A DNA stretch of 37,907 bases from a virus, in UHGV virus genome UHGV-1993895. One strand, given 5' to 3'. The notes beneath the pieces are model-generated. The model saw nothing but the letters and a program-made list of their open reading frames with translations. It did no database searches and was not told the origin of the DNA. Of this stretch, positions 1,113-37,907 are shown one piece after another. The first letter of the stretch is position 1. Each line of letters starts with the position of its first letter. A program made the translations under genes and the position numbers.

Positions 1113-1114
1113 GT

Positions 1115-1615: not shown

Positions 1616-1642
1616 GTCAATACACTAACTTGGGGTGATGGC

Positions 1643-1897: not shown

Positions 1898-1946
1898 GCT
1901 TATGACGTACAGTTAACCATATCGATATTGGCTCGCGTGATGACAA

Positions 1947-3205: not shown

Positions 3206-3221
3206 AATATAATTTTTATGC

Positions 3222-3249
3222 ATCCGTGATAATTACATCCGTCACGGAT
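3222..3249. promoter_or_regulatory. Inverted repeat between the PIN gene and the third cassette gene
   Basis: ATCCGTGA ... TCACGGAT arms (8 bp) including a 13-bp palindrome ATCCGTCACGGAT; no T-run. Confidence 0.3.
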
Positions 3250-3332
3250 ACATAAAGCTATAGCCAAAAGTGGACAAACCTTTATCTCACTCCAAACCAT
3301 CTGGTATCCTGCGCAAAACTAAGGAGGTTGGT

Positions 3333-3755
3333 GTGTTTGGTATATTAACGAGAAGCAAGATAAAAAAATTAAGGGCAGAACTCGCCGAAACACAAAAACT
3401 GGCTTCACATTTTTACAAAATGAAATACGACGCTGAAGAGCGTGCATTTGTTGAGTTATGCGATTTATCTATTCGTATGGGAGTAGAGCCAGATGTAGCG
3501 GCAAAAACCCAACAAGGCATTGATATACTTGCAGATGTTGTTTTAAACAGGCAATATGCGTTTTATCTAAACGAGAAGGCCATTCAGATTTACTCTCAAA
3601 TCTTCCTCCTAGAAAAAAGAAGAGGAACTCACGATCGAGAAGAGTGGTTAAATGAAGTTGTTAAAAAATCTGGCTGGGAAGTTGTTTCATCAGAGCTACC
3701 TCTTATTTGTGCTGATTTAATCGAAGAGGCAAAAGAGCGCCTATCCGATGGCTAA
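3333..3755 (+). CDS. Hypothetical soluble protein, third gene of accessory cassette
   Basis: GTG start 5 nt after a strong AAGGAGG RBS (3321-3327); ORF track gives a longer version from 3270; no TM segments, so not SieA-like. Confidence 0.5.
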   Translation: MFGILTRSKIKKLRAELAETQKLASHFYKMKYDAEERAFVELCDLSIRMGVEPDVAAKTQQGIDILADVVLNRQYAFYLNEKAIQIYSQIFLLEKRRGTHDREEWLNEVVKKSGWEVVSSELPLICADLIEEAKERLSDG

Positions 3756-3779
3756 ACGAATCCATCCGTGGATTACTAA

Positions 3780-7312: not shown

Positions 7313-7324
7313 GAGACACCTCCA

Positions 7325-7984
7325 TTAAAAAAGTGAACCAAGAAGACCGACGCCAGCACCAATTGCTGTACCCCAACCAGGCATGATTGCAGTCCCCATC
7401 GCAGCACCTGCCGCAGCTCCACCGAGAGCACTCTGAAAGCCAGACGGTTTATTGGCATTTGCTGCCGCTGCCGCCGCCTGCTGTTGATACAATTGGCTGA
7501 CGTTGTTAGCGTAGTTCTGCCCGGCGTTTGCCTGACCTGTAAGAGCACCAAGGCCGATATTTGCCAGATTGTTGTAGTTGTTCATCTGACCTGACAGCCA
7601 GTTTTGACCGAGTGTAGGTGCGATTGCTGCTAACTGGTTTCCTGTTGCTGTAGAGCCTAATCCACCCGTTGCCTCTGCTGCTGCCAGACTCTGATAGCGC
7701 GCCTGCCCTGCAAGGTCTTTGTACTGCTGGGAGTTGTAATACTGGTTAAGCGCCTGACCTTGCCCCTGAAGAGAGGAAAGATTTTGCAACTGTGATACAT
7801 ACTGCTGAGCGAGTGGCGTGAACGGTGCAAGGTTTTGCATGTTCGTCTGCCACATTTCACGCTGCAATTCGATGCCCTTTTCAGTTGCGCGTGCCTGGGC
7901 TTTAGATCCGGAGTCGCTGCCGCCTTTCATATACCCATTCATGGGAAGCAATTTATTCTTGAAGCTTTCGCTAAGTACTAACAT
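7325..7984 (-). CDS. Ejection protein, P22 gp7-like
   Basis: 219 aa, Q/N-rich with a Gly/Ala-rich hydrophobic C-terminus; synteny. Confidence 0.6.
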   Translation of the reverse strand: MLVLSESFKNKLLPMNGYMKGGSDSGSKAQARATEKGIELQREMWQTNMQNLAPFTPLAQQYVSQLQNLSSLQGQGQALNQYYNSQQYKDLAGQARYQSLAAAEATGGLGSTATGNQLAAIAPTLGQNWLSGQMNNYNNLANIGLGALTGQANAGQNYANNVSQLYQQQAAAAAANANKPSGFQSALGGAAAGAAMGTAIMPGWGTAIGAGVGLLGSLF

Positions 7985-8441
7985 TTAATAGCTCCTCATA
8001 TTTTGAACGAGGTAATTGATAGAGGGTGATTCCAACCGGTTTTCCGTTACTTATGTACGCATCATCAAGGTGACCAACACGGGTAGCGCCAAGCAAACGG
8101 ATAATTGCCCGTCCGTATTTCGTGGTGTCAGGAACCATGGTGATGCTGTTAAGGAATGCTGAGTTTTCGAGAAGCCATTTGCAGAATAATCGATGCCCTT
8201 GCAGTGCATATTCACCACGGAATCCGGGGTCGTACACCGCATGGCATTCAACAACGCTATGCCAGAAGTTACGCACTTCATGCACTCCGACCAGCATCAG
8301 TCCTTCGTAGATGCCGAGGTATACCGCATCAGGCTTGATGTAGTATTTGTCTCCACTGTCTACGATATTTCCCGTGTTTGCCGGGTTGTTGAGGAATTCT
8401 GCAAGCTTCACCGGATTATCGATGAGCTTTATTTCCATCAC
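7971..8441 (-). CDS. Protein at the gp14 position (ejection/assembly protein by synteny)
   Basis: 156-aa ORF between tail needle and gp7-like gene; assignment by position only. Confidence 0.45.
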
Positions 8442-9391
8442 TGCTCCGCAATGATTTTGATGGTTGTGGCAGTAAACGCCGCACCATTTGACTGAATGGT
8501 TAACGTACTGCCATTTGTGGCAAGAAAGCCGTCTTTATCCACGCTGAAGAACGTAGCTAACAGGATGTTGTCGGTTGTTGTCGCCGCATTACGACTGCTC
8601 ACAAGTGTGTCAGGAACAGAGCCGGAAAACGTTAGCTGCATTGATCTGTTAGCGGTTCCGCTGGGCCACGTCCCGACAATCGACAGCTTGAAGAACAGGG
8701 TTTTGTTCTCGTTGAACACAACCATCTTGTTGTTAACGGTGTCGAAGAATGGTGCCAACGTGCCTGATGACGGCGTGAGCGTTTTCAGCAGGCTAACAAG
8801 GTTGGTAGGCGCTGTCGGAATTGTTACCGATACTCCTGAGTAAACAACCTCTGATTTCTTGCGCGTGGTGGCATACTCAAGCGCAGATATTCTTGTTGAG
8901 TGATCACCCACTGTGCTTTGTAGCGTCGAAATACTTCCCTCTGCCGCTGTTAGCCTGGTATCAAGTGCGTCGATATCGGTTGTATTCTGAGTTATGCGCG
9001 CATCATGGTTTGCTAACTCAGATTCATTGGCAGCAATTCGCGTCTCGTGATCAGCCAACTCTGTTTCAGCAGCCGTAATCCTTGTTTCATGATCTGCAAG
9101 AGTGCTTTCCGCTGCTGCAATTCTATGTTCATGATTGATGAGAGTTGCTTCAGCAGCTTCAATTCTGGATTCATGGTCTGCAAGGGTGACATCCTGCTCA
9201 TCATTCTTCACCTGTGCATCATAAGCCCCCTTCCCTGCTTCGTTGGCCTTGTTTGCCACGTTACCAACATCAGTACCCTGTGCAATAACGTACAACAGAT
9301 ATGACTGCGAGAAGATATTGCGAGGAAGGATTGATGTATCGAGTCGTGTAGCCTGAATTGTTACCGGCTCATTGAGATTCGAATCAGCCAT
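8438..9391 (-). CDS. Tail needle (gp26-like) with extended C-terminal domain
   Basis: Repeated heptad motifs ([20 protein letters not shown]) indicating a trimeric coiled coil; 317 aa. Confidence 0.7.
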
Positions 9392-20111: not shown

Positions 20112-20617
20112 TCATTGCTGCCCCCACAAACAGACTTCACGCTCAATCTCACGGCGAGTCATCAGCCCTTTCCATTGCTTACCGCCAGCGTATGTCCAGC
20201 GACGTAGCTGGTCACATGCGCCATTGATATCGCCCTGGTTGATTTTGCGAAGAAGCGTCGATGTTCTGAAATTGCCTGCGCCCACGTTATAGACGAACGA
20301 ATAAAGAGCGCCGCGCGTTGTTTCCGGTATATCGACTTTGATGTACGGGTTAATTTGTCTGGCGACCGTGGCAAGGTCTTTATTCAGGAGGGCTTTGCAT
20401 TCTGCTTCGGNNNNNNNNNNTTACCGAGCATGATGTCTTTTCCGGTATGTCCGTGACATACAGTCCATACACCAACAATATCTTTGTATGGTATGTAGCT
20501 GACACCTTCCAGACCATCGTTACCACTTGGCCCAGTGATTAACACAGATGCTATAGCAATAGCCCCACCACTTATCGCCGCTATTACGCTATTTCGTAGT
20601 GCCGGTGACATTGCCAT
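20112..20617 (-). CDS. R: SAR endolysin (lysozyme), interrupted by a 10-N assembly gap
   Basis: N-terminal SAR domain [28 protein letters not shown] and catalytic region; frame resumes after the Ns ([22 protein letters not shown]) to a stop at 20112-20114; length across the gap is not a multiple of 3. Confidence 0.7.
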
Positions 20618-21036: not shown

Positions 21037-21112
21037 TGGTGCTGGTTAACGGACTTGAACCGCTACCCATTCGCTTACAAGGCGACTGCTCTACCATTGG
21101 AGCTAAACCAGC
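21037..21112 (-). tRNA. tRNA-Thr (anticodon UGU)
   Basis: Hand-folded cloverleaf: 7/7 acceptor stem GCTGGTT/AACCAGC, G18G19, T-loop GGTTCAAGTCC, anticodon loop CTTGTAA, encoded 3' ACCA. Confidence 0.55.
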
Positions 21113-21117
21113 ATATT

Positions 21118-21192
21118 TGGCGGGACAGCGTGGACTCGAACCACGATAAGAAGGTTAACAGCCTTCCGTAATGACCTTTATACGACTGACCC
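21118..21192 (-). tRNA. tRNA-Asn (anticodon GUU), one acceptor-stem mismatch
   Basis: Perfect anticodon stem with loop CTGTTAA, T-arm CGTGG-TTCGAGT-CCACG, discriminator G, encoded CCA; 3-bp D-stem and a T-T mismatch at 4-69. Confidence 0.45.
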
Positions 21193-24320: not shown

Positions 24321-24932
24321 TTATCTGTTTTTAACACGCTTTCGAGTCCTTTTAGATTTTTCCTTAAGATATTCCGCAAGTTTATCCTCATCATTATTAA
24401 ATTGAGATAAAAGCTCATGCTCGCAATTAAGTGCTTTACTCGCATAAGTTCCATATAGTTTCTTTCTTGCTAGTGCTGCTATGAATGCTGCATCTTCTTT
24501 GCTATCGAAATACCCTAACGATATTGTCTTATTTTTATAACCAACATAAGACTTCCACCTGCCAGTTGGCTTATACCAAGACACTCCAATTGCACCGGAT
24601 GTGTTTAATCTATTCCCTACAATGTTTCTTGCATTCTGCTCTTCTGTTGCCAGTCTTAGGTTTGAAATCCTATTGTCAAGTCTGTTCCCATTTACATGAT
24701 CAATAAACTTAGGAGGCCATTTTTTGTATACATAGAACCAAGCAAGTCTATGCGCCTTATACAAAACATTGTTTATACTAATGCATATATAACCACCACT
24801 AACACCTCCAGCAATACTACCTTTTACTCTTACTACTGAATTTGTTTTTAGCCATTTAAATATTCCTGTTTCTGAGTCATATGATAATGTTGACAGAAGC
24901 TCATCGTGATCAATTAGTTTTTTTATTCGCAT
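24321..24932 (-). CDS. HNH homing endonuclease with C-terminal AP2 DNA-binding domain
   Basis: HRLAWFYVYKKWPPKFIDHVNGNRLDNRISNLRLAT (HNH) then GVSWYKPTGRWKSYVGYKNKTISLGYFDSKEDAA (AP2-like); strongly AT-rich. Confidence 0.75.
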   Translation of the reverse strand: MRIKKLIDHDELLSTLSYDSETGIFKWLKTNSVVRVKGSIAGGVSGGYICISINNVLYKAHRLAWFYVYKKWPPKFIDHVNGNRLDNRISNLRLATEEQNARNIVGNRLNTSGAIGVSWYKPTGRWKSYVGYKNKTISLGYFDSKEDAAFIAALARKKLYGTYASKALNCEHELLSQFNNDEDKLAEYLKEKSKRTRKRVKNR

Positions 24933-25013
24933 AAAGAATATACTTAATAATATATACAGTAAGAACCATTAGTAACGATAACCCTGCTATTAACTCAGTG
25001 ATGTAGATGGTCA

Positions 25014-26465
25014 TCAGAATCCTCCTTTCTTCTTGGACTGCGGTTCCTCGCGTTCACGGCGGCGCATTTCAGCAGACTGTTGGTCTGTGTCATAAATAGC
25101 GCCATTTGCCTGAATGCAATACACAGTGCCGGTATTGCCATGACGATTGAGACGAAGGATTAGTTCAGTTTCACCAGGTGGAACACTGTCATCAAAAGCG
25201 CCTTCACGATGGATCCCGACCCAATAATCGCAATCCTGTTCAATCTGCCCTGTATCTCGTGAGTCACTTGGTAATGGGCGTTTATTGGTTCTGCTTTCCA
25301 GTGCGCGGTTAAGCTGCGTCAGAAGCACAACAACGCAATCAAGCTCTTTGGCAAGGTTCTTCAGTCCTTTGGTGATCATGCCGTAAGCAAGATCGTTGCG
25401 ATCGGCCTTCTCAGCAGTCATTAGTGTCAGGTAATCGACCAGAATCATGCCAACACATCCTTTTTCTCGCTTGATTCGACGGCTTTCGCTGACGATTTGA
25501 GCCAGAGATAATCCCGGCGTGTCGTCGATGTAAAGCAGGTCGATTTCACTCAAGCGATTGGCTGTTTCGATCGCCCTGTTGAAGTCACCATCGTAATCAC
25601 CCTGATAGCCGTCATCAGCGTCATTTGTCGCCGGAAGGTAAAAAATATTCGGGTTAACACCTGACTTCTGTCCCACCAGTTTTTCCAGTATCTGGTCACC
25701 TGGCATTTCAAGGCTGAACATCAGAGCGGGCTTTTTCTCATGCACTGCGCAGTTGATTGCCATCTGGCTGTATAGCGTCGTTTTCCCCATCTTAGGGCGA
25801 GCGCCAATGACAAACAGAGAGCCTTTCACCAGACCTTTCGGTGACAGCATCCTGTCCAGCGATGGGATCCCTGTGCTCATTCCTCGTTGTTCACCTGACG
25901 GGTCAAATCGCTTCTCAAGGTCGCTAACCCAGTCTTCCATGACCTCACCAAATGAGCGAAGGCCGCGACGCGATCCGGTTTTTGCATGGTCTGTCAGTTG
26001 CGTGAAAATAGCCTGAATAGCTTCGTACTTCTGCGTTGCAGTCATTCCGTTGCGGGAATAGAGCAATTCCATCGCTTCAGTCATGCGGTTGATGGCGTAG
26101 CGTTCCATTGCGGTTTCACGAACCTGCATTGCATAGGCAACGATGTTTGCTGCGCTTGGCGTGTTCTTTGCGATCTCAGCGATATAAGCAAAACCGCCAA
26201 CAGACACCGTTAACGATTTGCGCTCCAGTTCATCGAAAAGCGTCAGGCCATCTACTGGCTTTTGCTCCCGGTGCATTCTGGTTATTTCTTCGAAAAGGAT
26301 TTTGTGTGGTCGGCTGTAAAATGAATCGGGCTTCAGCATCGCCAGAACTTTCTGGACGCGCTCACTGCTGTCATCATCCAGAAGCAATCCACCAATCACC
26401 GCCTGCTCTGCCTCGATGCTATGGGGCGGCGCATAAAAATTATCGGTCATCGTGTTCACCCTCAC
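25014..26465 (-). CDS. Replicative DNA helicase (DnaB family)
   Basis: N-terminal PPHSIEAEQAVIGGLLLD, Walker A GARPKMGKTT, Walker B LVDYL; alternative start at MTDNFY (26450). Confidence 0.85.
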   Translation of the reverse strand: MRVNTMTDNFYAPPHSIEAEQAVIGGLLLDDDSSERVQKVLAMLKPDSFYSRPHKILFEEITRMHREQKPVDGLTLFDELERKSLTVSVGGFAYIAEIAKNTPSAANIVAYAMQVRETAMERYAINRMTEAMELLYSRNGMTATQKYEAIQAIFTQLTDHAKTGSRRGLRSFGEVMEDWVSDLEKRFDPSGEQRGMSTGIPSLDRMLSPKGLVKGSLFVIGARPKMGKTTLYSQMAINCAVHEKKPALMFSLEMPGDQILEKLVGQKSGVNPNIFYLPATNDADDGYQGDYDGDFNRAIETANRLSEIDLLYIDDTPGLSLAQIVSESRRIKREKGCVGMILVDYLTLMTAEKADRNDLAYGMITKGLKNLAKELDCVVVLLTQLNRALESRTNKRPLPSDSRDTGQIEQDCDYWVGIHREGAFDDSVPPGETELILRLNRHGNTGTVYCIQANGAIYDTDQQSAEMRRREREEPQSKKKGGF

Positions 26466-27339
26466 GAACTTTCAGGTAGGTATTATCGTTAAGCAGAAAA
26501 TCAAATCCCTTTTTGTGCCAGACAGTTCCGCGTTGATGGTTTGGACGCTCTTCGAACATCCATCGACAATTTTCGCCTACGTAGCTCAAATAATTTCTCC
26601 AGTCCTGCATCGTGAACCCATGCCCGTCAAGCTGGCGGGTTATCACTCCGGCTTTGCGCCAGAACGTTCGGATCTGGTTTTTACGCTTGTCATTCAGTGC
26701 GCGGATTCTTGGCGCTTCAGGAAGGATTTCGTGGTAAGCATCGACAACATCCTGACAGCTGACGGAAGGTTTTTTCTTGTCAGACTTTTTGTCTGCTGTG
26801 GCACTCTCTAATACGTCAGTATTAGAGATAATATTATTATATTCTTTATCTGTGGTAATTTGCTGGTAATCTGCTGGTACAGCATTGCTTACAGGCATTG
26901 GTATTGCTGGCTTTGAGGTGGTAATTTGCTGGTAATCTGCTGGTACAAAATTTGACTGATAATCGTCATATTTCTCTACCGAGAAAACTGAGAATTTACC
27001 GTGTGAAACCCAGTCAATCATGCCGAGTTTTTTGAACTTTCTAAGCAGGTACTGAACGCGATCTGGTTTGAGTCCTGTTTCAAACGCCAGAGAGTTTCTA
27101 CCGCCAAGTAGCTTCCCTCTGCCTACCAGAATTTCTCCTGCGTCAGTCATTACATACTCAGGCGTATGCTTTGCTTTGAGGATTAAGTGAACCCACAGAT
27201 GCGCAGCTTCTGCGTCCTTGTAAAACGGCACATCCATAATTTTACGGTGCAGCAAGGCATACCCCTTACCGCTGCTTTGATGCGGTTGTTGTAGCCTTCT
27301 GGCCTCTCTGGCTTCGGCTAGATTAGATATGTTACTCAT
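26440..27339 (-). CDS. Replication initiator (lambda O-like) with internal iteron origin
   Basis: 299 aa; duplicated peptide [10 protein letters not shown] encoded by DNA direct repeats; immediately upstream of the helicase. Confidence 0.7.
26853..26947. repeat. Origin iterons inside the initiator gene, flanked by an AT-rich tract
   Basis: Two copies of TGGTAATTTGCTGGTAATCTGCTGGTACA spaced 66 bp apart, each made of three GCTGGTA(A/C) sub-repeats; AT-rich stretch at 26821-26850. Confidence 0.6.
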
Positions 27340-27478
27340 GACCTTTCTCCTTCTGCATCAGCTTCACCTTTTCCAACTCAGCCCGGAATCGACCAGGCTG
27401 CTTGAAGCTGGACAGGAAGCGATCACGTAGTATGTGTTTGTGAATTTTGTCCTGGTAAGGACTGAGTTGTTTTGTCAT
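27332..27478 (-). CDS. Hypothetical 48-aa protein upstream of the initiator (below ORF-track cutoff)
   Basis: Hand translation [24 protein letters not shown]; its stop overlaps the initiator start. Confidence 0.3.
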
Positions 27479-27510
27479 AATGACTCCTGTGGATTGATCC
27501 AGTAATTCCC

Positions 27511-27807
27511 TCAGAATTGCATATCAATTTGCTTAAAATCCTCGGTGGCGCCCGGGGATTTTTTCTTTGTGATTTCATCAAGCGCATACTTAAAAGCCCT
27601 GCTAATCGCACTGATGTCTGATGCCATTCCGAAAGCACACAAGACCGAAGCAATAAATCTCCAGTCCGTTCTGCTTATCTTCGATTCATGACAGCCAATC
27701 ATCTTTGCCAGACCGCGCTGGGTAAGCGTTGACAGGTTGATGAGTAAATCAGTTTCAGCGCGATCAATTTCTCGCTGTGTTGGCTTGCTGTAGCTTGCTT
27801 GTGCCAT
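27511..27807 (-). CDS. cII: CII-family lysogeny activator (P22 C1-like)
   Basis: 98 aa; helix-turn-helix region and C-terminus [18 protein letters not shown] resemble lambda CII; between cro and the replication genes. Confidence 0.7.
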
Positions 27808-27922
27808 TTGTTAATTTTCCTATATTGATATTGAGTTATAGCGGCACACCCAATGGATTTGCCGCTGATGTTTGCTCACCCGGTTAGAGGTGAAAGGCCA
27901 GAACTGTTAAAGAGCAATTTGC

Positions 27923-28108
27923 TTATGCCGCTTGGCGGTAAGCACTTTCTTGATACTTCAGGGCGCCAGCTGTAACGATTTCCAATCGATAGGCGTCTTT
28001 CTCTGGGATAACTTCTTTCCACTGAGAGACTGCTGCATCGCTAATGCCTAGTGCTTTAGCAACAGCACGCTGGGTTCCGAAGTGGTCAATAACATCTTTT
28101 TTGTACAT
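27923..28108 (-). CDS. cro: Cro
   Basis: 61 aa MYKKDVIDHFGTQRAVAKALGISDAAVSQWKEVIPEKDAYRLEIVTAGALKYQ, P22 Cro-like. Confidence 0.85.
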   Translation of the reverse strand: MYKKDVIDHFGTQRAVAKALGISDAAVSQWKEVIPEKDAYRLEIVTAGALKYQESAYRQAA

Positions 28109-28122
28109 AGACTCGCTCCGAA

Positions 28123-28188
28123 ATTAAAGAACACTTAAATTATCCACCAAAGGAATCTTAAGTCAAGTTTATTTAAGATGTCTTAACT
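28123..28188. promoter_or_regulatory. OR operator region (PR/PRM) between cro and c2
   Basis: 18-bp partial dyads ATTAAAGAACACTTAAAT (28123-28140) and ATTTAAGATGTCTTAACT (28171-28188) sharing half-site ATTTAAG/CTTAAAT. Confidence 0.55.
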
Positions 28189-28839
28189 ATGAATACACAA
28201 CTGATGGGTGAGCGTATTCGCGCTCGCAGAAAAGAACTCAAGATTAGGCAGGCTGCCCTTGGCAAGATGGTTGGCGTGTCTAATGTTGCTATTTCCCAAT
28301 GGGAGCGATCTGAAACTGAGCCCAATGGCGAAAACCTATTGGCCTTAGCCAAGGCTTTGCAGTGCTCCCCTGATTACCTGTTGAAAGGAGAGGATAGTCT
28401 TTCAAACATTGCCTATCACAGCAGGCATGATCCAAGAGGTTCGTATCCTCTAATTAGTTGGGTAAGCGCAGGATGTTGGATGGAAGCTGTAGAGCCATAT
28501 CATAGGCGTGCAATAGATAACTGGTACGACACAACGGTAGATTGTTCTGAAGACTCTTTTTGGCTCGACGTTAAAGGCGATTCAATGACTGCCCCGGCAG
28601 GACTGAGTATTCCTGAGGGGATGATTATTCTCGTCGACCCAGAAGTCGAACCACGTAATGGAAAGCTGGTAGTCGCCAAACTTGAAGGAGAAAACGAGGC
28701 GACATTCAAAAAGTTAGTTATTGATGCCGGTAGAAAATTCCTGAAACCACTCAATCCACAATACCCAATGATTGAAATCAATGGGAACTGTAAAATCATT
28801 GGCGTTGTCGTTGATGCCAAGCTAGCAAACCTTCCTTAA
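28189..28839 (+). CDS. c2: C2 repressor (HTH + S24 LexA-like autopeptidase domain)
   Basis: 216 aa; HTH QAALGKMVGVSNVAISQWERSE, Ser-Lys dyad domain with GDSM; P22 C2-like. Confidence 0.9.
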   Translation: MNTQLMGERIRARRKELKIRQAALGKMVGVSNVAISQWERSETEPNGENLLALAKALQCSPDYLLKGEDSLSNIAYHSRHDPRGSYPLISWVSAGCWMEAVEPYHRRAIDNWYDTTVDCSEDSFWLDVKGDSMTAPAGLSIPEGMIILVDPEVEPRNGKLVVAKLEGENEATFKKLVIDAGRKFLKPLNPQYPMIEINGNCKIIGVVVDAKLANLP

Positions 28840-28860
28840 GGGGCTTTCGCCCCTTTTTTA
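28839..28860 (+). terminator. Rho-independent terminator after c2
   Basis: GGGGCTTTCGCCCC hairpin followed by TTTTTTATTT. Confidence 0.6.
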
Positions 28861-28902
28861 TTTCCCGTTAAAAATCAAAGACAAACTAAATTCACGCCCA
28901 TA

Positions 28903-28957
28903 GAATTAAGTTTTCTTCAAAAATGCACTTGACCAATAAATTAAGAAGTCTTAAATT
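28903..28957 (+). promoter_or_regulatory. PL promoter with OL operator sites
   Basis: TTGACC-16 nt-TTAAAT overlapped by the operator-like dyad AATTAAGAAGTCTTAAATT, with a second half-site-containing sequence upstream. Confidence 0.5.
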
Positions 28958-29002
28958 CAAGCCATCAGCAGGACGCTGGAAGCCAAACGGAACAGATTGG
29001 CA

Positions 29003-29043
29003 GGCTCTTTAACATCGACGGACTCTCAACCTAACCGTTGAGA
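29003..29043 (+). promoter_or_regulatory. nutL-like site (boxA + boxB hairpin)
   Basis: GGCTCTTTAACA (boxA-like) followed by hairpin TCTCAAC-CTAACC-GTTGAGA, between PL and the N gene. Confidence 0.45.
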
Positions 29044-29153
29044 CCAGAACTTGAGTGGTTTTGGGGATGGCGCGAATTGCAGCTGCAAGACAGCGATCGA
29101 GAAGATAAGCACCTCGACGCGTCATGCGCCAAAGCCACTTAAAGGAGATCATC

Positions 29154-29459
29154 ATGGTAACCATTGTCTGGAAAGAATCCAAAGGTACGGCAAAAAGCCG
29201 CTACAAAGCTCGCAGAGCAGAACTTATTGCCGAGCGACGCAGTAATGAAGCACTGGCGCGAAAAATTGCGCTAAAGCTCTCTGGTTGCGTCAAAGCAGAC
29301 AAAGCAGCATCACTAGGAATCCTTTGCTGCAAGAAGAAAGAAGAAGTCGTTCGAAAAAATAGAAGTATTTATTACAAAGATTCAAACCCATTAGGAAACA
29401 AAATACATGCAGTCCAAAAAATAAAATTGTACAGTAAACTACCGTACGGTGCTTATTGA
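29154..29459 (+). CDS. N: N antiterminator, phage-21-type arginine-rich motif
   Basis: Start at ATG 7 nt after AAGGAG; N-terminal ARM GTAKSRYKARRAELIAERR; first gene downstream of PL/nutL. Confidence 0.65.
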   Translation: MVTIVWKESKGTAKSRYKARRAELIAERRSNEALARKIALKLSGCVKADKAASLGILCCKKKEEVVRKNRSIYYKDSNPLGNKIHAVQKIKLYSKLPYGAY

Positions 29460-29800
29460 GTATGCTTATGGTGAAAAAGACTATTTATGTTAATCCTGAC
29501 CGCGGACAAAACAGAAAAGTATCTGATAGAGGTCTTACATCTCGAGACAGGAGGAGAATAGCGAGATGGGAAAAGAGGATAGCATATGCATTAAAAAACG
29601 GTGTAACACCTGGATTTAATGCTATAGATGACGGTCCTGAATATAAGATTAATGAAGACCCAATGGATAAAGTTGACAAAGCATTAGCAACACCATTTCC
29701 TCGCGATGTCGAAAAAATTGAAGATGAAAAATATGAGGATGTAATGCACAGAGTTGTTAATCACGCTCACCAACGAAATCCAAATAAAAAATGGTCATAG
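29456..29800 (+). CDS. Hypothetical 114-aa protein
   Basis: ORF overlapping the N stop; followed by a terminator. Confidence 0.45.
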   Translation: MSMLMVKKTIYVNPDRGQNRKVSDRGLTSRDRRRIARWEKRIAYALKNGVTPGFNAIDDGPEYKINEDPMDKVDKALATPFPRDVEKIEDEKYEDVMHRVVNHAHQRNPNKKWS

Positions 29801-29822
29801 CCCACTTCGGTGGGTTTTTTAT
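29801..29822 (+). terminator. Rho-independent terminator (tL1-like)
   Basis: CCCACTTCGGTGGG hairpin followed by TTTTTTAT. Confidence 0.55.
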
Positions 29823-30044
29823 TGTCTGAACAAATCTAATTTACTACCGCAAGCCACGCAGTGAAATGGGTGTGACTTGTGTTGGTCGCCAGAAAATGAA
29901 ATTAGGCAGCAAACCACTTATTTGAGGTGAGATATGGAAGAACAAGCAAACAAGATTCTCGTATAACTACTGCAAAAAGCCAGTAATGGAATAGACGCGG
30001 CTGTTTCATTCAGCCAGGCACAGATTCCTGATGTTGTTCATCAG

Positions 30045-30356
30045 TTGCTAATATGGAGTTTTGTCCATAGCGCACTTTTCCAAGTGGCTGGGTTGTTGCT
30101 TTTAATTGCAGCAATGAAACTTCCTGGTTTTGCAAGAACGGCAAGAAATAATGGCGAGAGATGGACGTCTTTAGATGGATGTCCAAATGATAGATATTTT
30201 ATATCTTCGTTTTATTACGATATATGCACCGTATTTGCTCCTATATATTGCTCAATTATTGGCGTTTTAATTATCGCCTTCAATTTCGAATGGTTGAAGA
30301 TTTGGCTTGCACCTAAGTTATTCCTAATTGAATATGCAGCATCATTGGTTAAGTAA
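30045..30356 (+). CDS. Hypothetical small membrane protein (2 predicted TM segments)
   Basis: TTG start; hydrophobic stretches LFQVAGLLLLIAAM and IYCSIIGVLIIAF; followed by a hairpin and T-run. Confidence 0.45.
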   Translation: MLIWSFVHSALFQVAGLLLLIAAMKLPGFARTARNNGERWTSLDGCPNDRYFISSFYYDICTVFAPIYCSIIGVLIIAFNFEWLKIWLAPKLFLIEYAASLVK

Positions 30357-30360
30357 TTTC

Positions 30361-30386
30361 AGGCCGCATAGTCGGCCTTTATTTTT
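30361..30386 (+). terminator. Putative terminator
   Basis: GGCCGCATAGTCGGCC hairpin followed by TTTATTTTT. Confidence 0.45.
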
Positions 30387-30595
30387 GGCATAAACAACAG
30401 AATAAACACTGCACTGTGTATTCATTCCAACGAGTGAATACACGGAGCAATGTCGCTCGTAACTAAACAGGAGCCGACTTGTTCTGATTATTGGAAATCT
30501 TCTTTGCCCTCCAGTGTGAGGGCCTTTTTATATGCATACCAATAACGCTTCACTCGAGGCGTTTTCGTTATGCAATCAAACAGAAGGAGCATCCT

Positions 30596-30766
30596 ATGCA
30601 ACAGTTCGCTATTGCAGGGGCGGCATCGGTTCGCCCTTTCAACCCGATTTTATCGGTGCAGCATTCACGAAAGAATATTTTAACCGGAGCAGACTTTAAA
30701 CAACCAAGAATGAAAAGTTTGCTCGAAAAGCTTTGGGATATTTTGAAACAACAAGGCCGCCCATGA
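30596..30766 (+). CDS. Hypothetical 56-aa protein
   Basis: Internal ATG 6 nt after AAGGAG within ORF 30491..30766. Confidence 0.4.
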   Translation: MQQFAIAGAASVRPFNPILSVQHSRKNILTGADFKQPRMKSLLEKLWDILKQQGRP

Positions 30767-30847
30767 GTTTTACAGATAACTGGTCAGACGAAGAGTTCAT
30801 TCGTCAGATGAACAAAATGCTCAATCAGCACAAAGAACAGGAGAAAG

Positions 30848-31159
30848 ATGATGATTCTGACTCTGAATGATAAGCGTGAAATATCGCAAATAATCTCAAG
30901 TTTTACTGATGAAGATTACGAACGAATCAACAGTGAAGTTGATCGCCTCTGCAAACGTTGCGACCCAATAAGCGAAATGCTTCGCTCATATAAACCAGAT
31001 GAACACACTAAGGACGCTATCGACTGGCTGGAAGATGATGACTGTAACTATCAGGAAAAAGCCGCTGAATGGTTCTGGGATGCAATAACCGAAAGAGTTA
31101 AGGCTGAATATGCCTTCGCAATATTCAAACGCAGACACATTTTTGGAGAAGCAGCATGA
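30848..31159 (+). CDS. Hypothetical 103-aa acidic protein
   Basis: ORF with AGGAGA RBS; stop overlaps the recT start. Confidence 0.45.
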   Translation: MMILTLNDKREISQIISSFTDEDYERINSEVDRLCKRCDPISEMLRSYKPDEHTKDAIDWLEDDDCNYQEKAAEWFWDAITERVKAEYAFAIFKRRHIFGEAA

Positions 31160-32067
31160 GCAATATCGTTGAATTCGTTAAACAGCAAGAGCAGTTATTC
31201 TGCGGAGCATTGACTGAACAGACGGTGACATGGGCTAAGGAAAGCCAGTTTGCAATTCAGTATTTCCAGAAAAATGATTACCTGGCTAAAACGGCACTGG
31301 CAAATCCAACCAGCGCACAGAACGCCATCATCAATGTTGCGGCGATCGGCATCACCTTAAACCCGGCCAGCAAACTTGCTTATCTAGTTCCGCGCGACGG
31401 CATGGTTTGCCTTGATATCAGTTATATGGGATTGCTCCATATTGCAATGGAGTCTGGTGTTATCTCATGGGGTCAGGCAAAACTTGTTCATGCTAACGAT
31501 ACCTATGAGTCAAACGGGCTTGATAAAGCACCAACCCATAAATACAACGCCTTCGGTGATCGTGGTGATATCGTTGGCGTTTACTGCACAGTTAAGACGC
31601 CAGCAGGTGATTATCTAACGGAAGAGATGAGTCTGGCTGAAATTGAGGCTGTAAGGAAAACAAGCAAGGCAGCATTCAGCGATAAAGGACCATGGGTAAA
31701 TCACTGGAATGAGATGGCGCGAAAGACGGTCGTAAAGCGTGCAAGCAAGTATTGGCCTAAGGCATCACGTCTTGATAGTGCTATTCACGTACTAAACGAA
31801 GAAGAAGGTGTGTGGACTGAACCAGTTATGCCGCACAAATCAGAGGAAGATATCCGCGAAGATGAACGGAAATGCCAGCAGGAAATAATGGATAAAGCAC
31901 AACTTCTTTGCGATGAAATGGCTCAGGCAGAAAACATGGATGATTTGAAGCGATATTTTGCAGAAGCATATCGCCTGACATCTGGAATGAAATTGCAGCA
32001 GAACGTACAAGCCATTTACATAGAATGCAAAGCGAAACTGGAGGTTGCCAGTGAGCAAACTGTATGA
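31156..32067 (+). CDS. recT: RecT-family single-strand annealing protein
   Basis: KGPWVNHWNEMARKTVVKRASKYWP matches the conserved RecT motif; 303 aa. Confidence 0.8.
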   Translation: MSNIVEFVKQQEQLFCGALTEQTVTWAKESQFAIQYFQKNDYLAKTALANPTSAQNAIINVAAIGITLNPASKLAYLVPRDGMVCLDISYMGLLHIAMESGVISWGQAKLVHANDTYESNGLDKAPTHKYNAFGDRGDIVGVYCTVKTPAGDYLTEEMSLAEIEAVRKTSKAAFSDKGPWVNHWNEMARKTVVKRASKYWPKASRLDSAIHVLNEEEGVWTEPVMPHKSEEDIREDERKCQQEIMDKAQLLCDEMAQAENMDDLKRYFAEAYRLTSGMKLQQNVQAIYIECKAKLEVASEQTV

Positions 32068-32533
32068 AATAGCCAATGAATACGCAAAGCTGATGGATTC
32101 AGATTTAGAGCCAGAGATGATTGCTGACACAATAGAAGGCATGGAAGGAGAATTTACCGATAAAATAGAGCAACTTCTTGCCATTATTAAAAATGAATCT
32201 GGTTATGCTGAACGCCTCAAGGACGAGGCAAAGTCACTGAATGAACGAGCAGCAGTAATTCAAAATAAGATTGACAGCATTATGGCGTATATAGCGTCAT
32301 CGCTTGAAATGGTTGGTAAGAAAAAGATTCGAGCAGGTATTCACCAGGTAACAATCCGCAAACCGTCAGAAACTGTAGAAATCATCGACTCAAGCGCCCT
32401 TCCTCCTGAATACGTTGAGTTTGAAACGACAATTAAAGCCGACAAGTTGGCAATCAAGCACCAACTAAAAGCAGGAATAAATATCCCAGGCGCTCAACTC
32501 AAGGTTGGGAAACCTTCACTTCTTATCAAATAA
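32051..32533 (+). CDS. Gp157-like phage protein (commonly paired with RecT/Erf)
   Basis: GTG start 6 nt after GGAGG; overlaps the recT 3' end; about 160 aa. Confidence 0.45.
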   Translation: MSKLYEIANEYAKLMDSDLEPEMIADTIEGMEGEFTDKIEQLLAIIKNESGYAERLKDEAKSLNERAAVIQNKIDSIMAYIASSLEMVGKKKIRAGIHQVTIRKPSETVEIIDSSALPPEYVEFETTIKADKLAIKHQLKAGINIPGAQLKVGKPSLLIK

Positions 32534-32544
32534 CGGTATCGACT

Positions 32545-32859
32545 ATGAAAAAGACTCCATGGGAGAAATGGGAAGTCGATTTCTTGCGCGAAGTGGCGGC
32601 GACAATGCCAGTTGAAGTTATCGCTGAAAAACTGGAAAGGACTGAAAAAGCAGTAATGGCGAAAGCAACAAGGATTGGCGCTGACATTGTTAGCCGACTT
32701 CGTGGAAGACGATGGACAAGAGCCGAAGTATCACTTTTCGGTAAGTTCTCCGCAGAAGAAATAGCAATTGCAACCTGCCGCTCAATTTATTCAGTAAGAG
32801 CTATGCGATACAAGCTAAAAAAACTCGATGAAGAAAGAGCGGGCATACGAATAAATTAA
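32545..32859 (+). CDS. Hypothetical 104-aa protein
   Basis: ORF in the early-left operon. Confidence 0.45.
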
Positions 32860-33036
32860 CAAAGAGGAATTTACCATGAGAGGGCTTGCATACAATCCCG
32901 GCATTCTTCCGGCAGAAATGATTATTCGCCAACGCGTAAAGCCAATGCCATCGAGAGAGGAATTGCTTAAGAGAAATTCTTTTCCATCAGTGAATCAAAA
33001 CAAATATCTGAATGCAATGTGGCGGAGTGGGAAGAA

Positions 33037-33498
33037 ATGAAACAAATGTCACTAATTGAGATGGATGGTTTTCTGAAAGGTAAATGCATCCCACGAGATT
33101 TAAAGGTTAACGAAACAAACGCTGAATATCTTGTCCGTAAGTTCGGTGAACTTGAATCAAAACTGGAAACTGCGTTGCGGGAGTGTCGTTCTGCTGGAAT
33201 CACGATTGATAACCTTGAGGCCAAGTGCGCGGCGCTGGCAGCGGAGAGTTCGGGGATGAAGAAGTTCTGCAAAGACGCTGCATTCGATGCCGATTACGAA
33301 GCAGAGCTAGGTATGGAGCGTGGTGGATTCAGTGATGCGCTTAACGAAATCAAAACCCCAGCCACCGATGCTTTTCTGGCTGAAGTACGGGCGCAGGGCG
33401 TGGAGATGATGCGCGAACATCCATCAATCAAACTTTGCTCTTTGACGCACATATGTGACGAGTTAGCCGCCCAGATTCGCAAAGGAGTTCAGTCATGA
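33037..33498 (+). CDS. Hypothetical protein
   Basis: Internal ATG (MKQMSL) within ORF 33019..33498, overlapping an upstream 53-aa ORF (32877-33038) in ATGA fashion. Confidence 0.4.
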
Positions 33499-33728
33499 GC
33501 ATCCGAACTGAACATGGATTTGGTCCTTCAACAGTCGAAGTCGAATGGCTTGATGATTGCCCTAAGTGCCAGCACGGCAAAGCCAAGGTAACAGGATGGT
33601 CGGTAACCAAAGATTCTTTGTGGGCGGGTGATGAGGCCGTCTGTTCCAAATGCGGTCACAAAGGTGAAATCGATGCTGATGGAGAGAATGCCTGGGTGGA
33701 ATGGGACGAAATCGAGGAGGCACAATGA
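33495..33728 (+). CDS. Small zinc-ribbon-like protein
   Basis: 77 aa with CPKC ... CSKC pairs. Confidence 0.45.
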   Translation: MSIRTEHGFGPSTVEVEWLDDCPKCQHGKAKVTGWSVTKDSLWAGDEAVCSKCGHKGEIDADGENAWVEWDEIEEAQ

Positions 33729-34261
33729 GCAAAATTGACTATCAGGCACTGCGTGAGGCGGCAGTGAAAGCAACGTGGGGAGACTGGGACTCATATAAAC
33801 CACACCGTGGCGCACGTGGTTATGAGGTCCGACTAAGTAGTCAGGCCATTGCGCAACACGTTCTGAAAAACAACGCTGAGTTTATTGCTGCCTTTAATCC
33901 AAAGGTTGCTTTGGCACTACTGGATGAGATCAACGCATTAGAGGAAACGCGTATCAACGATGTTTGCCGTATTGCGGAACTAACAAAACAACTGGAGTCG
34001 GCAAAATCAAAACTCAACGAACAGCGTGAATATTACAAAGGTGTTATCTCGGATGGGAGTAAGCGCATAGCAGAGTTAGAAAGTGATTCTCAGGCACAAA
34101 AGTTAGTTGAAGCAATCATTGTTGCGATAGAAAACGAACAGGAACGTCTTTTTGATGAAGATTACCTAATGGATTCGAAAGAATGCATTGACGTAATTCG
34201 TGAAGAAGTAAAGCGATGGAATGATTCCCGCGCCGCTGGCATTCGCATCAAAGGAGAGTGA
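33725..34261 (+). CDS. Ead/Ea22-like protein
   Basis: Start at MSKIDYQALREAAVKATWGDW after GAGGAGG RBS; coiled-coil central region. Confidence 0.5.
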   Translation: MSKIDYQALREAAVKATWGDWDSYKPHRGARGYEVRLSSQAIAQHVLKNNAEFIAAFNPKVALALLDEINALEETRINDVCRIAELTKQLESAKSKLNEQREYYKGVISDGSKRIAELESDSQAQKLVEAIIVAIENEQERLFDEDYLMDSKECIDVIREEVKRWNDSRAAGIRIKGE

Positions 34262-34262
34262 T

Positions 34263-34550
34263 ATGGCAACTTTGCAGGAATTAATCGACCTGACGCCAGA
34301 ACAGGAAAAAGCGTGGAATCGCCTTGTGAAGGCTGTAAAGGATTTCAGGGCAGCCGGAGGAAAGTTTTATAGCGTCCTGGACACGCTGAGCGCATACAAC
34401 GGCGAGCACGTTGCCAGCATTGATAACGATAAGGGCTACCACACTGCAAGCGTCTATATGCCTAGCATTGATGCGCCAGGGCTAACCAGTTGGGCTGATG
34501 ATTGGCACGGCATCACGCTGAAAGATGGCGTTGAAGTGGATGAGGACTAA
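34263..34550 (+). CDS. Hypothetical 95-aa protein
   Basis: ATG after AAAGGAGAG RBS within ORF 34221..34550. Confidence 0.4.
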   Translation: MATLQELIDLTPEQEKAWNRLVKAVKDFRAAGGKFYSVLDTLSAYNGEHVASIDNDKGYHTASVYMPSIDAPGLTSWADDWHGITLKDGVEVDED

Positions 34551-34553
34551 CAC

Positions 34554-35078
34554 ATGACTACTTTTACCGACAAAGAACTGATTAAAGAAATCAGAGAGCG
34601 AATCGGCAGCCTGGACGTGCGAGACAATATTGAGCGCCTGGCTTATGAAATCGCGCTGGCATCACTGGAAGCAGTATCGGATGAACGGGCAGCCTATGAA
34701 TTATTTATGGAGAAGCGTTTCGGGGAATCTGTAGATCGCCGCAGGGCAAAAAATGGCGATGGCGAATACATGGCATGGGATATGGCGATTGGCTGGATTA
34801 TCTGGTGTCACCGCGCCGCCATGCCTCAGGCCGGAAACTTTCGGGAAATCTCGGAAACGTCAACCAGATCTCCGGTAACTCCGGATGGTTGGATAAGCTG
34901 TAGTGAGCGAATGCCCCCTCAAGATGATTGGATTTTAATTTATTCAAAGCACGGCGAGTATATGGCAGGACAGGTACAAGGGGAATACGTGGAGTTGAGC
35001 GACGGCACTTTATCGTGGTTAGGGAACGCCTTGTTCTGGATGCCGCTACCAGAACCGCCGCAGCATGATGGTGAATGA
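34554..35078 (+). CDS. DUF551-like phage protein
   Basis: C-terminal PPQDDWILIY ... LSWLGNALFWMPLPEPP resembles DUF551. Confidence 0.5.
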   Translation: MTTFTDKELIKEIRERIGSLDVRDNIERLAYEIALASLEAVSDERAAYELFMEKRFGESVDRRRAKNGDGEYMAWDMAIGWIIWCHRAAMPQAGNFREISETSTRSPVTPDGWISCSERMPPQDDWILIYSKHGEYMAGQVQGEYVELSDGTLSWLGNALFWMPLPEPPQHDGE

Positions 35079-35265
35079 TGCCGCCAGTTAAAGTTGTGAT
35101 TATCACTTTGGTGATGATAGTGATTGCGAGAATCATGTCTGGTGAAATTGGGTGGATATGGTAATGGCTAAGGCAGCAGCAGAGCGCAACTAACAATCCT
35201 CGCATTCGCGGGGATTTCTTTTATCTGAACTCGCTACGGCGGGTTTTGTTTTATGGAGATGATAA

Positions 35266-35433
35266 ATGCACTTCCGAGTAACAGGTGAATGGAATGGAGA
35301 GCCATTCAACAGGGTTATCGAAGCGGAGAACATCAACGACTGCTATGACCACTGGATGCTGTGGGCGCAGATAGCGCATGCAGACGTAACCAATATTCGA
35401 ATTGAAGAACTGAAAGAACACCAAGCCGCCTGA
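35266..35433 (+). CDS. Hypothetical 55-aa protein (below ORF-track cutoff)
   Basis: ATG after GGAGA RBS; stop embedded in a terminator hairpin. Confidence 0.35.
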   Translation: MHFRVTGEWNGEPFNRVIEAENINDCYDHWMLWAQIAHADVTNIRIEELKEHQAA

Positions 35434-35448
35434 TGGCGGTTTTTTTAT
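35425..35448 (+). terminator. Rho-independent terminator
   Basis: CCGCCTGATGGCGG hairpin followed by TTTTTTTATT. Confidence 0.55.
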
Positions 35449-35460
35449 TGGAGACAAGAA

Positions 35461-35805
35461 ATGTCAGATTTGGCTATGAAGGTTTTGAAATGGCAATCGA
35501 CTGGCGATGTCGGCATCAGTAGCGCAACTCTTGCCTCAATCGCATGTGGACTGAAAAAGAATATCTATGGTCATAGCTTCGGTGCTCCACATGACGCAGC
35601 CGATTTCCGGCGATGCGTTGCACTTGTTGAGCAGATTCCAGAAATCAGAGATTCATTCGACAAGGTTGCAAAGCGCGTTCCGGCATTCAAAGGCATCCTC
35701 AACGAATGGGATTCTCTCGTTGCTCTGTTGAAGTCTGAAATGAAGATACACGGAAACAAAGCACCAGAGACTTACAGAAGAATCAGCGAGCTACGCAAGG
35801 ACTAA
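35461..35805 (+). CDS. Hypothetical 114-aa protein
   Basis: ORF directly after the terminator; no recognisable family. Confidence 0.45.
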   Translation: MSDLAMKVLKWQSTGDVGISSATLASIACGLKKNIYGHSFGAPHDAADFRRCVALVEQIPEIRDSFDKVAKRVPAFKGILNEWDSLVALLKSEMKIHGNKAPETYRRISELRKD

Positions 35806-35929
35806 CCACAGTCTCACACTCGATGAGGCCTGTTCATTTCTCAAGATATCCAGACCTACCATTGCTGCATCAATGCGGCTTTTTATTGCCTGATTTGCAG
35901 GTTCGATTCCATATTCGGAGATAGCACTC

Positions 35930-36130
35930 ATGCAACACGAACTACAACCTGATTCACTGGTTGATTTGAAATTCATCATGGCTGATACTGGCTTCGGTAA
36001 GACCTTCATCTATGACCGGATTAAGTCCGGCGACCTGCCAAAAGCCAAAGTTATCCACGGGCGAGCAAGATGGTTATATCGTGACCATTGTGAATTCAAA
36101 AATAAGCTCTTAAGCCGCGCCAATGGGTAA
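35930..36130 (+). CDS. xis: AlpA/Xis-family excisionase-like DNA-binding protein
   Basis: 66 aa with FIMADTGFGKTFIYDRIKSGDLPKAKVIHGRARWLYRDHCEF, an AlpA-type winged helix; last phage-like gene before the host flank. Confidence 0.6.
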   Translation: MQHELQPDSLVDLKFIMADTGFGKTFIYDRIKSGDLPKAKVIHGRARWLYRDHCEFKNKLLSRANG

Positions 36131-36659
36131 AATAGCGGGTAAAATATTTTTCACATCTAAAAAAAACCATTCCAATCAATCCCCTGCCGCGCCAAGTAGA
36201 TGTCTGCAGGGGACACCAGATACCCTTCAAACGAAATCTACCTTCACCCCGTAAAAGATGGGTTTGGCAGCACACTTGCCTTATATCTACTCATTTTTAC
36301 TGCAACAGGTTGAAATCTCAGCACTGTCAGAAAGCGCTGATGACTAAACAGCCCTGGGCCGGGCGATGTAACCATCACACAGAATCCTGATAGCGAAATA
36401 TGGCGTGACTCGATACTTCACTCCGCAATGCATTCCTTGATGAATTCGCAGGACCGTGATACACGGGACAGGTCACTGAATGACGACAATGTCCTGGAAA
36501 TCAGCGAACCGCGCATCTGAAGTACATTTGAGCGACTGTACCAGAACATGAATGAGGCGTTTGGATTAGGCGATTATTAGCAGGGCTAAGCATTTTACTA
36601 TTATTATTTTCCGGTTGAGGGATATAGAGCTATCGACAACAACCGGAAAAAGTTTACGT

Positions 36660-37907
36660 CTATATTGCTGAAGGTACAGGCGTTTCCATAACTATTTGCT
36701 CGCGTTTTTTACTCAAGAAGAAAATGCCAAATAGCAACATCAGGCAGACAATACCCGAAATTGCGAAGAAAACTGTCTGGTAGCCTGCGTGGTCAAAGAG
36801 TATCCCAGTCGGCGTTGAAAGCAGCACAATCCCAAGCGAACTGGCAATTTGAAAACCAATCAGAAAGATCGTCGACGACAGGCGCTTATCAAAGTTTGCC
36901 ACGCTGTATTTGAAGACGGATATGACACAAAGTGGAACCTCAATGGCATGTAACAACTTCACTAATGAAATAATCCAGGGGTTAACGAACAGCGCGCAGG
37001 AAAGGATACGCAACGCCATAATCACAACTCCGATAAGTAATGCATTTTTTGGCCCTACCCGATTCACAAAGAAAGGAATAATCGCCATGCACAGCGCTTC
37101 GAGTACCACCTGGAATGAGTTGAGATAACCATACAGGCGCGTTCCTACATCGTGTGATTCGAATAAACCTGCATAAAAGACAGGAAAAAGTTGTTGATCA
37201 AAAATGTTATAGAAAGACCACGTCCCCACAATAAATATGACGAAAACCCAGAAGTTTCGATCCTTGAAAACTGCGATAAAATCCTCTTTTTTTACCCCTC
37301 CCGCATCTGCCGCTACGCACTGGTGATCCTTATCTTTAAAACGCATGTTGATCATCATAAATACAGCGCCAAATAGCGAGACCAACCAGAAGTTGATATG
37401 GGGACTGATACTAAAAAATATGCCGGCAAAGAACGCGCCAATAGCATAGCCAAAAGATCCCCAGGCGCGCGCTGTTCCATATTCGAAATGAAAATTTCGC
37501 GCCATTTTTTCGGTGAAGCTATCAAGCAAACCGCATCCCGCCAGATACCCCAAGCCAAAAAATAGCGCCCCCAGAATTAGACCTACAGAAAAATTGCTTT
37601 GCAGTAACGGTTCATAAACGTAAATCATAAACGGTCCGGTCAAGACCAGGATGAAACTCATACACCAGATGAGCGGTTTCTTCAGACCGAGTTTATCCTG
37701 AACGATGCCGTAGAACATCATAAATAGAATGCTGGTAAACTGGTTGACCGAATAAAGTGTACCTAATTCCGTCCCTGTCAACCCTAGATGTCCTTTCAGC
37801 CAAATAGCGTATAACGACCACCACAGCGACCAGGAAATAAAAAAGAGAAATGAGTAACTGGATGCAAAACGATAGTACGCATTTCTGAATGGAATATTCA
37901 GTGCCAT
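36660..37907 (-). CDS. MFS transporter, LacY/oligosaccharide:H+ symporter-like (host gene)
   Basis: 415 aa, about 12 TM segments; motifs shared with LacY (FHFEYGTARAWG, FDQQLFPVF); start codon is the last three bases of the window, so the true start may lie beyond. Confidence 0.8.
   Translation of the reverse strand: MALNIPFRNAYYRFASSYSFLFFISWSLWWSLYAIWLKGHLGLTGTELGTLYSVNQFTSILFMMFYGIVQDKLGLKKPLIWCMSFILVLTGPFMIYVYEPLLQSNFSVGLILGALFFGLGYLAGCGLLDSFTEKMARNFHFEYGTARAWGSFGYAIGAFFAGIFFSISPHINFWLVSLFGAVFMMINMRFKDKDHQCVAADAGGVKKEDFIAVFKDRNFWVFVIFIVGTWSFYNIFDQQLFPVFYAGLFESHDVGTRLYGYLNSFQVVLEALCMAIIPFFVNRVGPKNALLIGVVIMALRILSCALFVNPWIISLVKLLHAIEVPLCVISVFKYSVANFDKRLSSTIFLIGFQIASSLGIVLLSTPTGILFDHAGYQTVFFAISGIVCLMLLFGIFFLSKKREQIVMETPVPSAI

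Follow-up and report, generated by a model that had tools for sequence, protein, structure and literature searches.

An attR junction of the IntS/TorI type at argW very probably accounts for the integrase-free interval between torI and cscB in a P22-like Escherichia coli prophage

Results

The interval between torI and cscB

The window, that is, the whole stretch of 37,907 nucleotides analysed here (UHGV virus genome UHGV-1993895), is part of draft scaffold KE701907.1 of assembly GCA_000460655.1 and contains late, lysis, replication, immunity and early-left phage genes. Towards its right end, the ORF list gives a 66-aa xis-like ORF and, on the opposite strand, a 415-aa ORF of the MFS/LacY family. 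The features of this region, together with one scaffold gap further to the left, are as follows:

20411-20420, no strand: 10-N scaffold gap inside the phage SAR-endolysin gene
35461-35805, plus strand: 114-aa ORF of no family, the last ORF of the early-left segment
35864-35879, plus strand: terminator-like hairpin and T-run, directly past the module boundary at 35860/35861
35885-35923, plus strand: homologue of the HK620 feature 'promoter, phage integration' (HK620 annotation transferred by offset)
35930-36130, plus strand: torI, the 66-aa xis-like ORF, recombination directionality factor (RDF, excisionase) of the IntS/TorI module
36107-36218, plus strand: phage-side attR (P arm and core), starting at the published attR-IHF2 primer site
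36125-36133 and 36137-36145, plus strand: two direct GGGTAAAAT repeats (motif count, repeat family D3), putative IntS arm-type sites
36204-36218, plus strand: att core of 15 nt, CTGCAGGGGACACCA, equal to the 3' terminus of the tRNA-Arg(CCU) gene argW; exact prophage/host boundary
36219-36659, no strand: host argW-cscB spacer of 441 bp, unaltered by empty-site comparison
36398-36517, plus strand: DUF4942 gene fragment (pseudogene remnant) in the host spacer, annotated in some genomes
36660-37907, minus strand: cscB, the 415-aa sucrose permease of the host csc regulon (Pfam LacY_symp, E 1e-193)

The coordinates that a first-pass annotation had given for the two genes (35930-36130 and 36660-37907) are correct, and the interval between them, 36131-36659, measures 529 bp; since the transporter gene lies on the minus strand, 36660 is its stop-codon end and not, as had been written, its beginning. 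The statement that no ORF of 60 aa or more separates the two genes is borne out by the ORF list, in which the largest ORF touching the interval has 59 aa (36096-36275, minus strand) and the remaining ones have at most 44 aa. A stretch of 529 bp without an ORF is statistically unremarkable.

The first-pass annotation had taken the interval for a place from which int, and possibly att, had been lost, and had proposed a TBLASTN search for integrase remnants. This search was run with seven tyrosine integrases as queries, namely IntS of K-12, HK620, SC418 and L010, the P22-type Int of a metagenome sibling (L015) and two integrases from L014, a sequence of strain 100416. Only noise was obtained in 36131-36659 (top match E 0.06 over 22 aa), and the absence of an integrase from the interval therefore holds. 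The same seven queries detected no integrase in the 47.7 kb made up of the whole window and 9.8 kb of its left flank (top match E 0.03). By ORFs and by tblastn, no tyrosine integrase gene lies between xis and the host junction, which is where a prophage of the P22/lambda type would have it.

TorI and the phage-side attachment site

The product of the xis-like gene is identical in 66 of 66 residues to E. coli K-12 TorI (PDB 1Z4H, 'Tor inhibition protein'), and the gene carries the torI annotation (RefSeq) in hundreds of E. coli genomes. Its Pfam matches to HTH_17 and Phage_AlpA are below threshold, so that the identification comes from identity to the solved TorI structure and not from Pfam. 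TorI is the RDF of KplE1 (CPS-53), and HK620 (HkaC) and Sf6 (P18) encode identical proteins (PMC3509656). The window thus has, as its RDF, the 66-aa winged-helix protein that belongs to the IntS/TorI module. Upstream of torI, the homologue of the HK620 promoter includes a TTGC-N5-TTGC motif at 35886-35898, a candidate cII-type site that corresponds to the cII-binding site annotated in HK620.

The attR-IHF2 primer, used by Panis et al. to amplify a functional 135-bp KplE1 attR substrate (PMC3509656), has an exact match at window positions 36107-36126. Between the start of this match and the last base of the core (36107-36218), 107 of 112 nt are identical to K-12, HK620 and Sf6; the five substitutions (36150, 36165, 36188, 36191 and 36192) all lie in the P arm and leave the repeats and the core unchanged. 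The first GGGTAAAAT repeat overlaps the torI stop codon, and the motif has three matches in the window compared with 0.17 expected. The two repeats correspond to the HK620 'repeat_region attP', and they contain TAAA, the motif carried by IntS arm-type sites (PMC2951348), which makes them putative arm-type sites in the P arm beside torI.

Downstream of torI, the 3' end of argW is present as the core. It occurs once in the window and comprises 15 nt of the 16 in K-12, where the KplE1 core is a 16-nt duplication, CTGCAGGGGACACCAT (PMC2951348, PMC3509656). The distance from the torI stop codon to the core is 73 bp, the same as in K-12 between torI and pawZ, the argW pseudo-copy. As far as the core, the torI-attR stretch is ~96-97% identical to K-12, HK620 and Sf6. 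The att core and the arm repeats are therefore intact at 36125-36218, contrary to the suggestion that the att site might have been lost, and we infer that this attR is functional.

A second copy of argW sequence was observed on the other side of torI. At 35895-35910, TTGCAGGTTCGATTCC is an exact 16-nt copy of argW positions 46-61, which in argW directly adjoin the 15 nt copied at 36204-36218; the chance expectation of such a 16-nt copy upstream of torI is estimated at ~1e-3. The copy is kept in K-12, SC418 and ECC-1470, and it overlaps the TTGC-N5-TTGC motif. By their positions, torI and the P arm (293 bp) seem to be enclosed within a 30-nt tRNA-derived stretch.

Host DNA beyond the core

When the window, K-12, SC418 and ECC-1470 are aligned, all four run collinearly across torI and the core; right after the core, K-12 (dsdC side) diverges, whereas the csc+ strains stay identical. 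An alignment with a prophage-free argW strain gives the complementary picture, with identity from the core onward and unrelated sequence to the left of it. A synthetic empty site was composed of 325 bp from the yfdC side, argW and window 36219-36819. Of 5426 complete E. coli genomes, 1411 carry it uninterrupted at a single place with a coverage of 80% or more, and its best 15 matches have 99.4% identity over the full length. The ends of argW and cscB in strain 120899, at 1900 and 2342, leave the same 441-bp spacer as between 36218 and 36660, and the 441-bp sequence was present downstream of argW in the unoccupied csc+ strains that were checked. The DNA past the core is thus the DNA that follows argW in unoccupied strains. 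As the host side equals the empty site, the torI-cscB junction is free of deletions, and the interval, which had been regarded as prophage DNA and as a potential deletion joint, consists of just 88 bp of phage/att sequence (36131-36218) followed by host sequence that matches the empty site base for base (36219-36659).

To the right of the identical junction, relatives have the host csc genes, in the order cscB (or oligosaccharide MFS transporter), csc kinase, cscA, LacI-type regulator and dsdA. An inverted repeat at 36607-36617/36640-36650 was considered as a cscB terminator; no T-run follows it on either strand. The DUF4942 remnant within the spacer (Pfam E 8e-4, below the curated cut-off, with an internal stop coming next) is likewise found in strains whose argW is unoccupied; it may go back to an older argW island, perhaps the one with which the csc genes arrived.

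Gene order of the IntS/TorI module

The integration module is conserved in KplE1, HK620, Sf6, CUS-3 and many argW prophages (PMC2951348). In KplE1, intS is the first gene and torI the last (PMC3509656), and in the K-12 sequence the attL-intS end and the torI-attR end of this element are both found at argW. The annotations of HK620 and Sf6 place the attP core 74 bp downstream of the torI homologue (hkaC / gene 18), followed by the P' arm with the int promoter and by int. In the complete SC418 prophage, the order is cscB, attR, torI, early genes, late genes, tailspike, gtr genes, intS, argW and yfdC, and in L010 it is ant, tailspike, IntS and argW; IntS and argW are thus at the opposite prophage end in SC418, L010 and K-12. 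The torI-attR-cscB junction itself is present at 80% coverage or more in at least 372 complete genomes, seven of which are 100% identical over 901 bp. This arrangement is already known and ordinary.

These gene orders suggest how the interval would have arisen. In the free phage the order is torI - attP - int, and integration through the core splits the two genes: TorI remains at attR, beside the DNA that formerly followed argW (here cscB), and IntS moves to attL beside argW, at the opposite prophage end and about 40 kb away. The interval is accordingly composed of a 73-bp P arm with two IntS arm-type repeats, a 15-bp core and 441 bp of host DNA up to the 3' end of cscB. Excision in the KplE1/HK620/Sf6 family requires IntS, TorI and IHF acting on attL and attR, with intS expressed from its own autoregulated promoter inside attL. 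Transcription of int and of the RDF is uncoupled in the module, intS being autoregulated from the attL promoter (PMC2951348).

The opposite end of the prophage and the module switch

The sequence L012 is 100% identical to window 1-11112 and reaches 9.8 kb further to the left, and L026 covers the middle of the window. Left of the window (L012 11025-13434 and onward), the tailspike gene is separated by 285 bp from a copy of the final 46 nt of the tRNA-Thr gene thrW (13389-13434), and thrW-downstream DNA comes next. Past the thrW copy, its sequence is the same as that after the intact thrW in strain 100416 (L014 from 12047 on). A partial 3' copy of thrW joined to thrW-downstream DNA, as left by integration of the P22 type at thrW, is therefore what stands at the tailspike end. 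Within the 9.8-kb left flank, no tRNA gene, no argW core and no similarity to an integrase was found. The first-pass annotation had allowed for an integrase just outside the window, and the search of these 9.8 kb did not reveal one. Similarly, intS beside attL/argW was not found at the opposite end within 9.8 kb, for which an assembly artefact may be responsible. As read from its sequence, the tailspike end in the scaffold is a P22-type thrW attR and not an intS-attL-argW end. Comparison with the uninterrupted host locus, recommended earlier as a means of finding att cores at both prophage ends, gave the argW core at the torI end and a thrW-type far end.

The metagenome sibling L015 is 99.9% identical to window 24554-35860 and then diverges, continuing (11343-12816) with a different xis, a 386-aa P22-type integrase, thrW and proA. 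The switch between the two sequences, at 35860/35861, lies 70 bp upstream of torI and just before the hairpin at 35864-35879. Because of this identity to a sequence with a thrW xis-int module, the window looks thrW-type up to 35860, and 35861-36218 alone looks argW-type. The early-left segment is common to argW-type and thrW-type P22-like prophages, and several argW prophages match the window from about 35191 on (H21-H23 and H25; H24 starts slightly later, at query 712 vs 692).

The 10-N gap at 20411-20420 is the sole assembly join between the tailspike-side and the torI-side contigs. The reading frame shifts across it, and ~8 nt seem to be missing with respect to the expected protein. A search of the 5426 complete E. 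coli genomes for the same whole prophage found neither half covered to 80% or more at any place, and the tailspike-thrW junction was not found in one piece.

Some further observations concern the left flank. The 3' part of the tailspike gene (L012 12300-13228) shares 99.8% identity with tailspikes that prophages of O25b:H4-ST131 and related strains encode, which hints at the O-antigen specificity of the phage. The DNA downstream of thrW is a low-GC island (L012 13435-20924; L014 12047-24656; L028 20001-33730) with recombinase-family (resolvase-like), major capsid and baseplate-like genes and, at the far end, a tyrosine integrase of its own; it resembles a satellite or a capsid-encoding island within a thrW tandem array. 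The island was rejected as part of the window prophage, being, in two complete genomes, a separate element of the tandem array whose own integrase is far off. The best left-end matches (H26-H28) were set aside as context, as they come from another prophage, a mosaic one located at the bio/ybhB (lambda att) locus.

Discussion

The torI end is an attachment-site junction

TorI, the core, the arm repeats and the exact position of the host boundary were identified directly, as was the order of genes in the relatives, and the interval 36131-36659 is very probably the attR junction of an IntS/TorI module of the KplE1/HK620/Sf6 type in argW rather than a site of integrase deletion. Weighing against this are the cognate attL, intS and argW, which were not found at the far end in the source scaffold, so that the module may be incomplete in this genome, the five P-arm substitutions, which may affect the binding of IHF or IntS, and a core identity of 15 nt instead of 16. 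The opposite view, namely that int once stood between xis and the host gene and was lost, perhaps with att as well, leaving the interval as a scar, is extremely improbable. It agrees with an interval that has neither an ORF of at least 60 aa nor an integrase, and with the sibling phage L015, which has the same early genes and xis, int and thrW at this position. A scar of this kind is contradicted by an intact att core with its arm repeats, by a geometry identical to that of K-12 KplE1, by a host side that is the empty site from the first base past the core and by the failure of tblastn to find an integrase remnant. In addition, int is never at this position in the IntS/TorI module (SC418, HK620, Sf6): attP lies between torI and int in KplE1, HK620 and Sf6, and int is therefore not expected at 36131-36659. 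The premise taken from P22 and lambda, with int between xis and the attachment site, is inapplicable, since the xis gene is the torI of this module.

Among described systems, KplE1 (CPS-53) of K-12, with attL-intS ... torI-attR at argW (Panis, Mejean, Ansaldi et al.; PMC2951348, PMC3509656), is the closest. The two share an identical TorI, the 73-bp spacing from torI to the core, the arm repeats, 15 core nt, 107 of 112 attR nt and integration in argW. In contrast to KplE1, which is a 10-kb remnant, TorI in the window ends a full-length P22-like genome; the csc locus rather than dsdC lies past the core; the core identity is 15 nt instead of 16; and the partner intS end was not found in the source scaffold. 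The attP regions of the Lederbergvirus members HK620 and Sf6 are 96.8-97.0% identical in nucleotide sequence over 35880-36218 and have the same order of promoter/cII site, torI, arm repeat and attP core, but in these free-phage sequences the core is followed by the P' arm and int, where the window has host DNA. The P22/lambda-type L015 (thrW) resembles the window in its early-left genes up to 35860 (99.9%), and a thrW-type attR is found at the far end of the window prophage; its different xis, 386-aa Int, thrW and proA are replaced in the window by torI and the argW attR.

In IntS/TorI prophages at argW, a xis-like gene abutting host DNA without an integrase is the normal signature, found in many P22-like prophages of E. 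coli and Shigella. A xis-host junction of this type should not be counted as a degraded prophage end, which prevents mis-annotation, and comparison with empty sites allows the att sites to be called to the base.

Origin of the mismatched ends

Two readings of the far end were considered, and both are compatible with the attR explanation of the torI end. We give slightly less than an even chance to a real hybrid, formed by a ~2.2 Mb inversion through homologous recombination between a P22-type prophage at thrW and an IntS/TorI element at argW in inverted orientation. The product of this inversion would be a full phage genome between the thrW attR and the argW attR, without an integrase, and the reciprocal product would carry both integrases; the shared segment 35191-35860 is one possible recombination site. 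Such an origin is consistent with the L012 flank, in which the tailspike gene is followed, after 285 bp, by the 46-nt 3' part of thrW and then by thrW-downstream DNA and in which a tRNA, an argW core and an integrase are all lacking, and with an early region (24554-35860) that matches, at 99.9% identity, a phage whose xis-int module is of the thrW type. Homology of at least 0.67 kb (35191-35860) is common to argW-resident prophages, and both flank orientations, inferred from the gene orders of SC418, K-12 and the thrW locus, fit as well. On the other hand, the source is a single draft scaffold with an N gap inside the prophage, the arrangement is seen in none of the 5426 complete genomes, and the inversion would be asymmetric, putting the replichores off balance by ~0.45 Mb (estimated from K-12 map positions).

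An assembly artefact, in which the late half of one prophage has been joined to the early half or the torI end of another (thrW, argW), is a substantial possibility, though one that we put below even. The mis-join would sit either at the 10-N endolysin gap or in the shared segment 35191-35860, and the true argW prophage would keep its intS-attL end. The position of the gap in a conserved lysis gene, the phage segments that are common to both prophage types and the failure to see the arrangement among the 5426 complete genomes all speak for it. However, the gap is tiny (~8 nt missing) and is flanked by the same gene, in register except for the frame, which suggests a local closure failure rather than a collapsed repeat; there is no gap within 35191-35860; and both contigs look thrW-type independently of each other up to 35860. 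The size of the gap and the independent thrW character of the two contigs slightly favour the inversion.

If the scaffold is correct, which we consider close to an even chance, a complete-looking P22-like prophage is locked in the chromosome with two right-hand sites that differ in specificity and no integrase of its own. The integrase of TorI would then be megabases away, on the reciprocal hybrid; excision by attL x attR would be impossible, and IntS and TorI acting on the inverted attL and attR would flip a segment of the chromosome. In that case, the view that the element is excision-defective and that a rearrangement is involved may be right by accident: its reasoning fails, but an element without a cognate integrase in cis, and possibly defective in excision, would remain. 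Prophage-mediated chromosomal inversions are known in enterobacteria, as in E. coli O157:H7, where they involve lambdoid prophages. A pair of homologous prophages lying in inverted orientation would give exactly such mismatched ends as are found here, in the present case on one draft scaffold. A correct scaffold would thus represent a natural, large prophage-mediated inversion by which a phage that is otherwise intact becomes immobilised; events of this kind are known, and the interest is modest.

Other genes in the window

Three further groups of genes were observed. Between the helicase gene and ninB, a gene on the minus strand (24321-24932) encodes a 203-aa HNH_3/AP2-like protein. This exact sequence is listed for 1678 blocks of the collection and recurs among several lambdoid and Stx prophages that otherwise differ from one another, a distribution typical of mobile inserts resembling homing endonucleases. 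The plus strand of the immI region (1947-3205) encodes a 239-aa protein without a known family and, overlapping it, a 182-aa protein with a PIN domain; the two genes are flanked by the gp16-like ejection gene and mnt/arc/ant and may represent toxin-antitoxin or defence cargo. Finally, phage genes for tRNA-Thr(TGT) and tRNA-Asn(GTT) lie on the minus strand at 21037-21192, between the antiterminator gene and the lysis genes, and the same pair is present in the SC418 prophage.
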